Part shown: in pieces, positions 9,001 to 12,000 of the stretch | Layout of the letters: every line of letters starts with the position of its first letter | Numbering within the stretch: position 1 is the first letter of the stretch | IMG/VR virus record: IMGVR_UViG_648028025_000004 | Direction: 5' to 3' (one strand) | Source of the DNA: a virus | Lineage: Duplodnaviria; Heunggongvirae; Uroviricota; Caudoviricetes | DNA: 53,480 nucleotides | Made by a program: the position numbers

Positions 9001-12000
9001 TTTATTAGTAGGTTATTTTTGTTGCGAATAATTCGCCTTTTACGATGGCTGTTATGATATTTTTAGCAACATCTTCTGATGCGCCAACCTTGATAAGGTC
9101 AGCAAGTATTTTGTTATTTACTTCTTTCCGGTGAGCTTTATCCTTTGCTCTACGCTCTTCTTCGTCCTTGATTCTTTTTTCTTCTGCTATTCTGGCTTGC
9201 TCTTTTGCTTCAGCCTCGCGCAGGATTCGTTCTGCCTCCTCCTGTGCTTTACGGCGTTCTGCTTCAATTGCCGCATGCTTTTCTCTTTCAGCTCGTTCTG
9301 CTGCCTCTTTTGCTTCGCGCTGTGCTCGTTGCTCGGCTTCAATGCGTTCACGCTCTGCACGTTCCTCTGCGGCCTTAGCTTCTGCTTCTCGCCTTGCTGC
9401 TGCTTCAATTTCGGCTTTTGCCTTTGCTTCGGCTTCAGCTCTGGCTTTCTCTTCAGCTTCTCTTTTTAAGCGTTCTTCATGCTCTCGCTTTTCCTGCTCC
9501 GCTTTGAGTCTTGCCTCTTCTCTTTGGCGGTCAAATTCGCGATCCATCAAAATCGCTATTTCATGGTCAGACTCAATTTGCTTTGCGAGAGCTTCAGCTG
9601 CTGCCTTAGCTTCTTCTTCGGCTTTAATCCGCGCCTGTTCTTCCTCATAATCAGTAAGAGGCTGGCGCGCCTTGGCTTTCAGTTCATCAAGGCGATCGCG
9701 CACTGTCTTGCGGTTAGCATCAATTAGCTTTGGAATTTCCTTCAGTTCAGCAACAAGGTCTTTGCCAAGACCATCGAGATATGTTTTCGTCTGCGCAACT
9801 TTATACGCCAGATAAGCGATCTCCTTTCTGCCCTTTGCCGTTGTGATATCAGGCACAAAGGACATAACTTCACGTTCAACCTTTTGAAGAATTTCTTCAA
9901 TCTGGTCGGCAGACTAAATTACAGTCATTGCATTTGCTTTTTCAATAACAACTAAATCTGTTACTTCACTCATATATCCTCCGTCAAAAAAATTGCCCTC
10001 ACACTGGAGGGCAAAGAAGATTTCCAATAATCAGAACAAGTCGGCTCCTGTTTAGTTACGAGCGACATTGCTCCGTGTATTCACTCGTTGGAATGAATAC
10101 ACAGTGCAGTGTTTATTCGTATGCCTGTCTTTTAACCACATCAGGCTCGGTGGTTCTCGTGTACCCCTACAGCGAGAAATCGGATAAACTCTATTCACCC
10201 CTACAGAGAGAATGATGGAGATTCACCGATGAGTAACTGGTGGCAGGAACTATTACGTTTCTTCCTGCGTGGTCTTACGCTACAACAGTTAATTCATATG
10301 CTTATTATTTTAATTGCCTTGATAATAATCACCCCAGCATCAATTAAAGAGTGGGTAGATATAAGGAACCCCGAAATACTTCCAGATCACTGGATGTATT
10401 ACGCAATGCTTTTGTGTATCAGTTATGTTCTGAACAGGGGGATGGAGTGTTGATCGCGCAGAAACAGATTTACTTATCAACCTGTCAACGCTTACCCAGC
10501 GCGGTCTGGCAAAGATGATTGGCTGTCATGAATCGAAGATAAGCAGAACGGACTGGAGATTTATTGCTTCGGTCTTGTGTGCTTTCGGAATGGCATCAGA
10601 CATCAGTCCGATTAGCAGAGCTTTTAAGTATGCGCTTGATGGACTCACCAATAAAAAACGCCCGGTGTGCAAGACCGAGCGTTCTGAACAAATCCAGATG
10701 GAATTCTGAGGGAATTACTGGATCAATCCACAGGAGTCATTATGACAAATACAGCAAAAATACTCAACTTCGGCAGAGGTAACTTTGCCGAACAGGAGCG
10801 TAATGTGGCAGATCTCGATGATGGTTACGCCAGACTATCAAATATGCTGCTTGAGGCCTATTCAGGCGCAGATCTGACCAAGCGACAGTTTAAAGTGCTG
10901 CTTGCCATTCTGCGTAAAACCTATGGGTGGAATAAACCAATGGACAGAATCACCGATTCTCAACTTAGCGAGATTACAAAGTTACCTGTCAAACGGTGCA
11001 ATGAAGCCAAGTTAGAACTCGTCAGAATGAATATTATCAAGCAGCAAGGCGGCATGTTTGGACCAAATAAAAACATCTCAGAATGGTGCATCCCTCAAAA
11101 CGAGGGAGGTTCCCCTAAAATGAGGGACATCCCTCAAAACAGGGGGACACAAAAGACACTATTACAAAAGAAAAAAGAAAAGATTATTCGTCCGAGAATT
11201 CTGGCGAATCCTCTGACCAGCCAGAAAACGATCTTTCTGTGGTTAAACCGGATGCTGCAATTCAGAGCGGCAGCAAGTGGGGAACAGCAGAAGACCTGAC
11301 CGCCGCAGAGTGGATGTTTGACATGGTGAAGACCATCGCACCATCAGCCAGAAAACCGAATTTTGCAGGGTGGGCTAACGATATCCGCCTGATGCGTGAA
11401 CGTGACGGACGTAACCACCGCGATATGTGTGTGCTTTTCCGCTGGGCCTGCCAGGACAACTTCTGGTCCGGTAACGTGCTGAGTCCGGCCAAACTCCGCG
11501 ACAAGTGGACCCAGCTCGAAATCAACCGTAACAAGCAACAGGCAGCCGTGACAGCCAGCAAACCAAAACTCGACCTGACAAACACAGACTGGATTTACGG
11601 GGTGGATCTATGAAAAACATCGCCGCACAGATGGTTAACTTTGACCGTGAGCAGATGCGTCGGATCGCCAACAACATGCCGGAACAGTACGACGAAAAGC
11701 CTCAGGTACAGCAGGTAGCGCAGATCATCAACGGTGTGTTCAGCCAGTTACTGGCAACTTTCCCGGCGAGCCTGGCTAACCGTGACCAGAACGAACTGAA
11801 CGAAATCCGCCGCCAGTGGGTTCTGGCTTTCCGGGAAAACGGGATCACCACAATGGAACAGGTTAACGCAGGAATGCGCGTAGCCCGTCGGCAGAATCGA
11901 CCATTTCTGCCATCACCCGGGCAGTTTGTTGCATGGTGCCGGGAAGAAGCATCCGTTATCGCCGGACTGCCAAACGTCAGCGAGCTGGTTGATATGGTTT

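Follow-up and report, generated by a model that had tools for sequence, protein, structure and literature searches.

Features of the O locus

The window, that is the whole stretch of 53,480 nucleotides that was analysed (IMG/VR record IMGVR_UViG_648028025_000004), contains a replication module in which a split O gene is followed by P and ren and preceded by a truncated cII (Table 1). A single continuous O reading frame of about 299–312 aa, with the DNA-binding and the P-interacting halves in one protein, is absent: the two halves are in different frames. The 5' ORF codes for native O residues 1–133, then for 52 out-of-frame residues up to a TGA at 11297–11299, and it includes the complete Phage_rep_O DNA-binding domain (PF04492, residues 22–115, profile positions 2–95 of 95, E 1.4e-36). 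The native frame of the C-terminal half is open from 11119 and codes for native residues 153–312. Its first start codon is a GTG at 11239, after ...GATCTTTCT, and neither a Shine–Dalgarno motif nor an ATG is found ahead of it. The preliminary description of this DNA had placed the two halves in different frames, with the break in the iteron array, and had considered P and ren to be intact. The ORF list and the positions of the iterons bear out the former; the latter is borne out by the ORF list and by alignment (P of the window matches lambda P at 230 of 234 aligned positions, stop included), and also by PF06992 in the case of P. A sequence search found no solved structure of O (E up to 0.01), and in the Rfam scan of the window the one match was the ALIL pseudoknot in the IS3-family element, with none at the O locus.

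Table 1. Features of the window discussed in the text (positions are those of the whole stretch)
Feature	Position	Strand	Remarks
IS600	7313–8577		In a small ORF beside kil; not at this site in E2865 and H19
Glu/Ala/Lys/Arg-rich repetitive ORF	9005–9865	-	286 aa; between cIII and sieB
cII, 5'-truncated	10448–10709	+	10447/10448 is the junction of the 3081-bp deletion
oop RNA region	10651–10767	-	Terminator (10685–10655) and pO-like promoter (10767–10739) both kept; HK629 annotation under the match
O, split	10742–11613	+	872 bp in two frames, break within the iteron array (ORF list); homologous to lambda-type O
5' O fragment ORF	10742–11299	+	185 aa, codon phase 2
Iteron 1 (Stx-type 1'')	11090–11107	+	ATCCCTCAAAACGAGGGA; same as 933W 'ori iteron 1'
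Iteron 2 (Stx-specific 1')	11110–11127	+	TTCCCCTAAAATGAGGGA; not lambda ITN2
Hybrid iteron	11129–11147	+	Start from iteron 3, end from iteron 6; sequence equals iteron 6 (lambda ITN4)
Deletion junction	11129–11140	+	12-bp direct repeat ATCCCTCAAAAC; 12 bp shared forward, 0 bp backward
3' part of O, native frame	11131–11613	+	Native residues 153–312, P-interacting half
AT-rich unwinding region of ori	11148–11187	+	Unchanged with respect to 933W and 11KH263; extent after the description of lambda (PMC3349717)
3' O ORF as listed	11239–11613	+	124 aa, phase 1, GTG start
P	11610–12311	+	Intact, 233 aa; PF06992, E 1.1e-61
ren	12308–12598	+	Intact, 96 aa; annotated 'protein ren' in E2865
IS3-family element	14006–15321		Interrupts the nin region; ALIL frameshift pseudoknot at 14865–14981 (Rfam)
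lpxR (lipid A deacylase)	about 17453–18412	-	Flanked by a first antiterminator gene, truncated, and by a second Q gene that is intact; E2865 coordinates
Head-gene lesion	about 30219–33173		Truncated S49 protease gene, IS66-family ISEc22 and truncated U gene in place of the scaffold, capsid and head-completion genes
nleH	about 45775–46656		Coordinates transferred from the E2865 annotation
cif	about 46873–47706		Coordinates transferred from the E2865 annotation
DUF1076 gene	about 51352–51927		Coordinates transferred from the E2865 annotation
espJ	about 52826–53480	-	Coordinates transferred from the E2865 annotation

Three iterons of 18–19 bp each are left, with spacings of 20 and 19 bp; a search with 18-mer iterons gives two matches in the window, for 0.02 expected by chance. 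The count of three agrees with the preliminary description, which had the array at 11091–11147, one base short at its start (11090). Both Stx-specific iterons, 1'' and 1', are there, with sequences identical to those of the six-iteron Stx type, and the origin retains just iterons 1'', 1' and 4. Thus the array beside the AT-rich region does not reach four iterons; the AT-rich region itself is intact.

A second lesion lies immediately upstream, which the preliminary description had missed. Compared to the sibling prophage of strain H19 (locus L017, 5920–9000), a 3081-bp deletion takes the 3' part of sieB and the whole cI–cro region with pR, and fuses the truncated sieB to the truncated cII. Since the whole immunity region is lost, including pR, the genes O, P and ren are left without an early promoter in any case, and transcription from pR through the origin is abolished; no promoter-like site was found on the + strand upstream of O in the window. 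The oop region is kept beside the broken origin, though its target cII is truncated. The sieB–cII junction is free of IS in the window and about ten other strains. E2865 and about 16 sibling strains carry an IS3-family element at precisely this point, with a 2-bp repeat flanking it, and PV0838 has an inversion of the segment that lies between two copies of the IS.

The prophage and its sibling in strain H19

The window starts in ybhC and ends at espJ. It corresponds to the prophage located between ybhC and ybhB–bioA (the lambda attachment site) in E2865 and in many O26-type strains, to which it is 100% identical except for the IS positions; these vary among otherwise identical strains. It is the nleH–cif–espJ prophage of the O26:H11 lineage, at the lambda attachment site. 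The cargo consists of the type III effector genes nleH, cif and espJ, and also includes lpxR; an IS66-family ISCro1 is found among the cargo of the right end (about 45775–53480 of the window). At the position of the 286-aa repetitive ORF (9005–9865), RefSeq has a 969-bp feature, 'TolA', with an internal stop.

In strain H19 (O26:H11), this prophage occupies the same site and matches the window over about 16 kb with 0 mismatches, but its sieB, cI, cro and cII are complete and its 939-bp O is intact. Four lesions are found in the window and not in H19: the 3081-bp deletion, a 67-bp deletion in O, IS600 and the IS3-family element. The deletion of the head genes, on the other hand, is also seen in H19, which shows that it predates the deletion in O. 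The H19-like ancestor had already lost its head genes but kept int, xis, cI, O, P and ori; it would therefore have been inducible and capable of replication but unable to make particles.

From the hybrid iteron onwards (window 11129–12613), the 1485 bp that span the 3' part of O, P and ren show 100% identity to Stx1a_11KH263 (locus L002, 1455–2939), whereas cII, just upstream of O, is only about 96% identical, which marks a mosaic boundary near the start of O.

The parent of the split allele

The nearest relatives of the split gene are the O genes of Shiga-toxin phages and of related prophages, all of which are 939 bp long. Six iterons are annotated in 933W (starts at 1349, 1369, 1388, 1408, 1432 and 1455 of locus L003). 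The 12-mer ATCCCTCAAAAC opens iteron 3 as well as iteron 6, which starts 67 bp further on. Aligned with 933W and Stx1a_11KH263, the window shows one gap of exactly 67 columns and is identical in the rest of the 292 columns. When the 67 bp are put back, the gene is 939 bp long, has 0 mismatches to O of Stx1a_11KH263 and reads as an uninterrupted frame of 312 aa. Since 67 is 3 x 22 + 1, the loss shifts the reading frame. The parent of the allele is a six-iteron origin of the Stx-phage type with a 939-bp O, and the three iterons were lost in a single 67-bp deletion.

The preliminary description had assumed a lambda-like ancestor with four iterons, one of which would have been lost with 28 bp, and had proposed an alignment with a lambda-type O/ori as a check. 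The alignment confirms that iterons are missing, but three rather than one, and over 67 bp rather than 28 bp. Lambda cannot be the parent because the second iteron of the window is of the Stx-specific 1' type, and the single 67-bp gap explains all the differences. The figure of 28 bp is a mere difference in length with respect to lambda O (900 versus 872 bp); this difference is coincidental, and is what remains of the 67 bp once the two extra Stx iterons (39 bp) are subtracted. As for a contiguous, in-frame O in the native family, which the preliminary description considered as decisive, it does exist in H19, 11KH263 and 933W, and shows that the copy in the window is a derived, broken allele, as had been proposed.

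The loss of DNA between short direct repeats is a textbook sign of replication slippage or of short-homology recombination. We infer that such an event, between the two ATCCCTCAAAAC 12-mers of a six-iteron oriO module of the Stx-phage type (939-bp O, 312 aa), would have removed iterons 3, 4 and 5. The product would be a protein of 185 aa, made of the complete DNA-binding domain and a nonsense tail, and the C-terminal half, which recruits P, would be stranded in the other frame with no translation signals of its own.

The deletion splits O and takes three iterons at the same time, so that the initiator and the origin would be lost in one step. It is, in our opinion, highly probable that this one 67-bp deletion inactivated both O and its internal origin. 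In the six-iteron Stx origin, it is the four iterons adjoining the AT-rich region that are bound strongly, iterons 2 and 3 being the best bound and iterons 4 and 1' the worst, and destroying a single iteron (1 or 1') abolishes the establishment of a P27-derived plasmid (Kozlowska et al., PMC7466680). In the nomenclature of that study, the deletion in the window removes iterons 1, 2 and 3*, and the iterons that are kept are the three that O binds least well. The preliminary description considered the initiator as inactivated and the origin as probably so; this is supported, and both are very probably dead, a conclusion based on the fact that the two halves of O are not joined, that the C-terminal half has no start signals and that the weakest three iterons are left. 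Against this, the 5' fragment has a complete Phage_rep_O domain and could still bind iterons if it is expressed. Regarding the age of the event, O, P and ren have accumulated zero substitutions compared to their intact relatives, which fits a recent event and is no proof of relaxed selection.

Occurrence of the allele in databases

Complete E. coli genomes with the identical 872-bp allele number 31 and come from many submissions. We also used as a probe a 42-mer across the junction, chosen such that an intact array gives megablast no seed. Of 5426 complete E. coli genomes, 41 contain this probe, each of them a single time and in the chromosome; these are about 3% of the genomes that have this type of O (41/1312). 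The exact products of 185 aa and 124 aa are found on 32 and 50 contigs, respectively, from several sources. On the contrary, none of 50,697 phage records and none of 72,556 plasmid records contains the 42-mer, including the 126 phage records that carry most of the O gene. The absence of the junction from phage records agrees with the allele being non-viable.

These observations exclude a sequencing error at the repeat array, which the preliminary description had kept in mind. It is true that tandem repeats and multi-copy lambdoid prophages (4–5 O-like places per genome) are classic places for mis-assembly, but that an assembler collapsed the array of a gene that is really intact is hardly conceivable when the same allele and the same split products recur in the genomes of several submitters, and when co-resident intact six-iteron copies are assembled correctly in the same kinds of genomes.

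The split gene has not escaped public annotation: in every junction record that we opened, RefSeq (PGAP) has 'replication protein, frameshifted'. The pseudogenic O is thus already flagged, and it is a case of ordinary prophage decay. Our search of the literature found no paper on a natural deletion of iterons in O. A paper on a 'hotspot' in Salmonella Heidelberg is about the iterons of an IncX1 plasmid and not about phage O.

Recurrence of the deletion

The junction is also found outside the O26 group, in ten genomes: O157:H7 F6321, E110019, O39:NM F8704-2, O103 ML775, 14EC047, 14EC017, 13E0780, SLK172, 2012C-4227 and OkiPb01717. Among the eight of these carriers whose immunity region is in view (the count leaves out O39:NM, which has an IS at the immunity region, and 14EC017), there are at least seven different cI alleles, and the O haplotypes of these eight differ on both sides of the deletion.

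The decisive case is that of F6321 (O157:H7), whose cI–ren stretch of 3301 bp has 100% identity to the sequences of O157 644-PT8 and 180-PT54, save for the extra 67 bp of the latter two. Taken with the pair formed by the window and H19, this means that the same deletion arose independently at least twice. The 67-bp deletion is therefore recurrent in E. coli, in at least two lineages. For some other carriers no exact intact sibling was found; for the divergent allele of 14EC047, the best intact relative is 98.8% identical. Some spread of the junction by recombination between prophages may also have occurred.

The array of 13E0780 (locus L012, 4590–5500) is different: its O is frameshifted, 911 bp long, and has five iterons, with an extra 39-bp 1''–1' pair before the same 3/6 junction. 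This extra pair indicates that the array expands as well as contracts. LR-46 (H137) looked like a possible second type of junction, but it was rejected, since its O is an intact gene of 900 bp with four iterons and one base change before ITN4.

Possible selection, exclusion or residual function

The recurrence of the deletion raises the question of whether it is just neutral decay. A different explanation, which we find possible but on the unlikely side, is that it is a selected, one-hit 'grounding' mutation. The logic is the following: in an inducible prophage that makes no particles, replication, in situ or futile, kills the host, and the loss of O and ori removes this cost while the cargo is kept. 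The H19-like ancestor described above, without head genes yet with int, xis, cI, O, P and ori, fits that situation, and it is well established in the laboratory that trapped lambda fragments can kill cells by replicating (PMC3349717). The junction has at least two separate origins, on different backgrounds (the window versus H19, F6321 versus 644-PT8), the prophages that carry it have at least seven cI alleles among them, and it is absent from phage records. However, the 12-bp repeat is a hotspot that alone predicts recurrence, with no need for selection; the carriers amount to only about 3% of the genomes with this O type, and the missing pR would be enough by itself to silence replication in the window. 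A stronger version, in which bacteria exploit the iteron 3/6 hotspot, one slippage being enough to ground inducible, unproductive six-iteron prophages and being favoured because it stops the killing of the host upon induction while nleH, cif and espJ are kept, seems to us slightly less likely again.

It could also be imagined that the segment left here (oop, pO, the iterons that remain and perhaps the truncated DNA-binding fragment of O) is kept as a repressor-independent device that excludes lambdoid phages of the same replication specificity. As a matter of fact, oop, its terminator and the pO-like promoter are intact beside the iterons, and oop with iterons on a plasmid blocks the replication of rep-lambda phages, the 'inhibition phenotype' of Hayes (PMC3349717). 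But this phenotype required ITN3–4 and a multicopy plasmid (PMC3349717), whereas the locus in the window is single-copy and has lost the equivalents of lambda ITN1–3. There is no sign of conservation for such a purpose, and the sibling H19 has the intact version. This explanation would therefore be very improbable.

Last, the split gene might still work, either by a -1 ribosomal slip on an A-rich tract or as two separate proteins acting on a three-iteron origin. The two frames overlap by 180 bp (11119–11299), -1 is the shift needed, and in principle a rare slip, for example on the A6 run at 11171–11176 within the overlap, would yield a fused O; the 5' product also has a complete DNA-binding domain. 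However, the frame of the 5' ORF reads AAG AAA AAA GAA, so that the efficient heptamer A AAA AAG is out of phase, and the two-frame arrangement is not conserved: the nearest relatives are single-frame and no phage record has the junction. Frameshift rescue is ruled out on these three grounds, phase, non-conservation and absence from phage records. As to two separate proteins, the C-terminal half is preceded by neither a Shine–Dalgarno motif nor an ATG, single-iteron mutations already kill origins of the Stx type, and the prophage has no pR. We give next to no credit to a functional split gene, and retain the reading in which one deletion very probably put an end to both the initiator and the origin.

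Relation to known systems and significance

The locus is best compared to the six-iteron Stx phages (933W, P27, H-19B and Stx1a_11KH263). The regions that flank the deletion in O are 100% identical to 11KH263 and 98–99% identical to 933W and H-19B, and iterons 1'' and 1', the AT-rich region, P and ren are the same. Unlike these phages, the window has no iterons 3–5 (67 bp), its O is frameshifted and three iterons are left: it is a derived deletion allele and not a working member of the group. The layout is also that of lambda (four iterons, 900-bp O), with the origin inside O, 18-bp iterons, an AT-rich region and then P and ren, and the identity of the DNA is about 97%, but lambda is devoid of the 1' iteron that the window carries.

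The ori-defective deletions r93, r96 and r99 of lambda are small deletions between repeated iteron sequences, which inactivate the origin in cis. They are in frame (12–24 bp) and leave O active in trans, whereas the natural deletion in the window also destroys the initiator.

With its IS insertions and the loss of structural genes, the window is one of the defective effector prophages of EHEC and EPEC (cif–nleH–espJ, at the lambda attachment site) and does not differ from them in kind. The sub-lineage of the window adds the deletion of the immunity region and that of O/ori to the lesions of the prophage of H19.

For annotation purposes, O is a true pseudogene whose ancestral state is the six-iteron array, from which 67 bp were lost. 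What is mildly new is that a phage's own origin repeats are a recurrent hotspot for a 67-bp deletion that destroys the initiator and the origin together, and this hotspot could serve as a marker of prophage domestication. In the O26:H11 sub-lineage to which the window belongs, the cif–nleH–espJ prophage probably neither replicates nor induces, in which case the effector cargo would be fixed in the chromosome rather than mobile.
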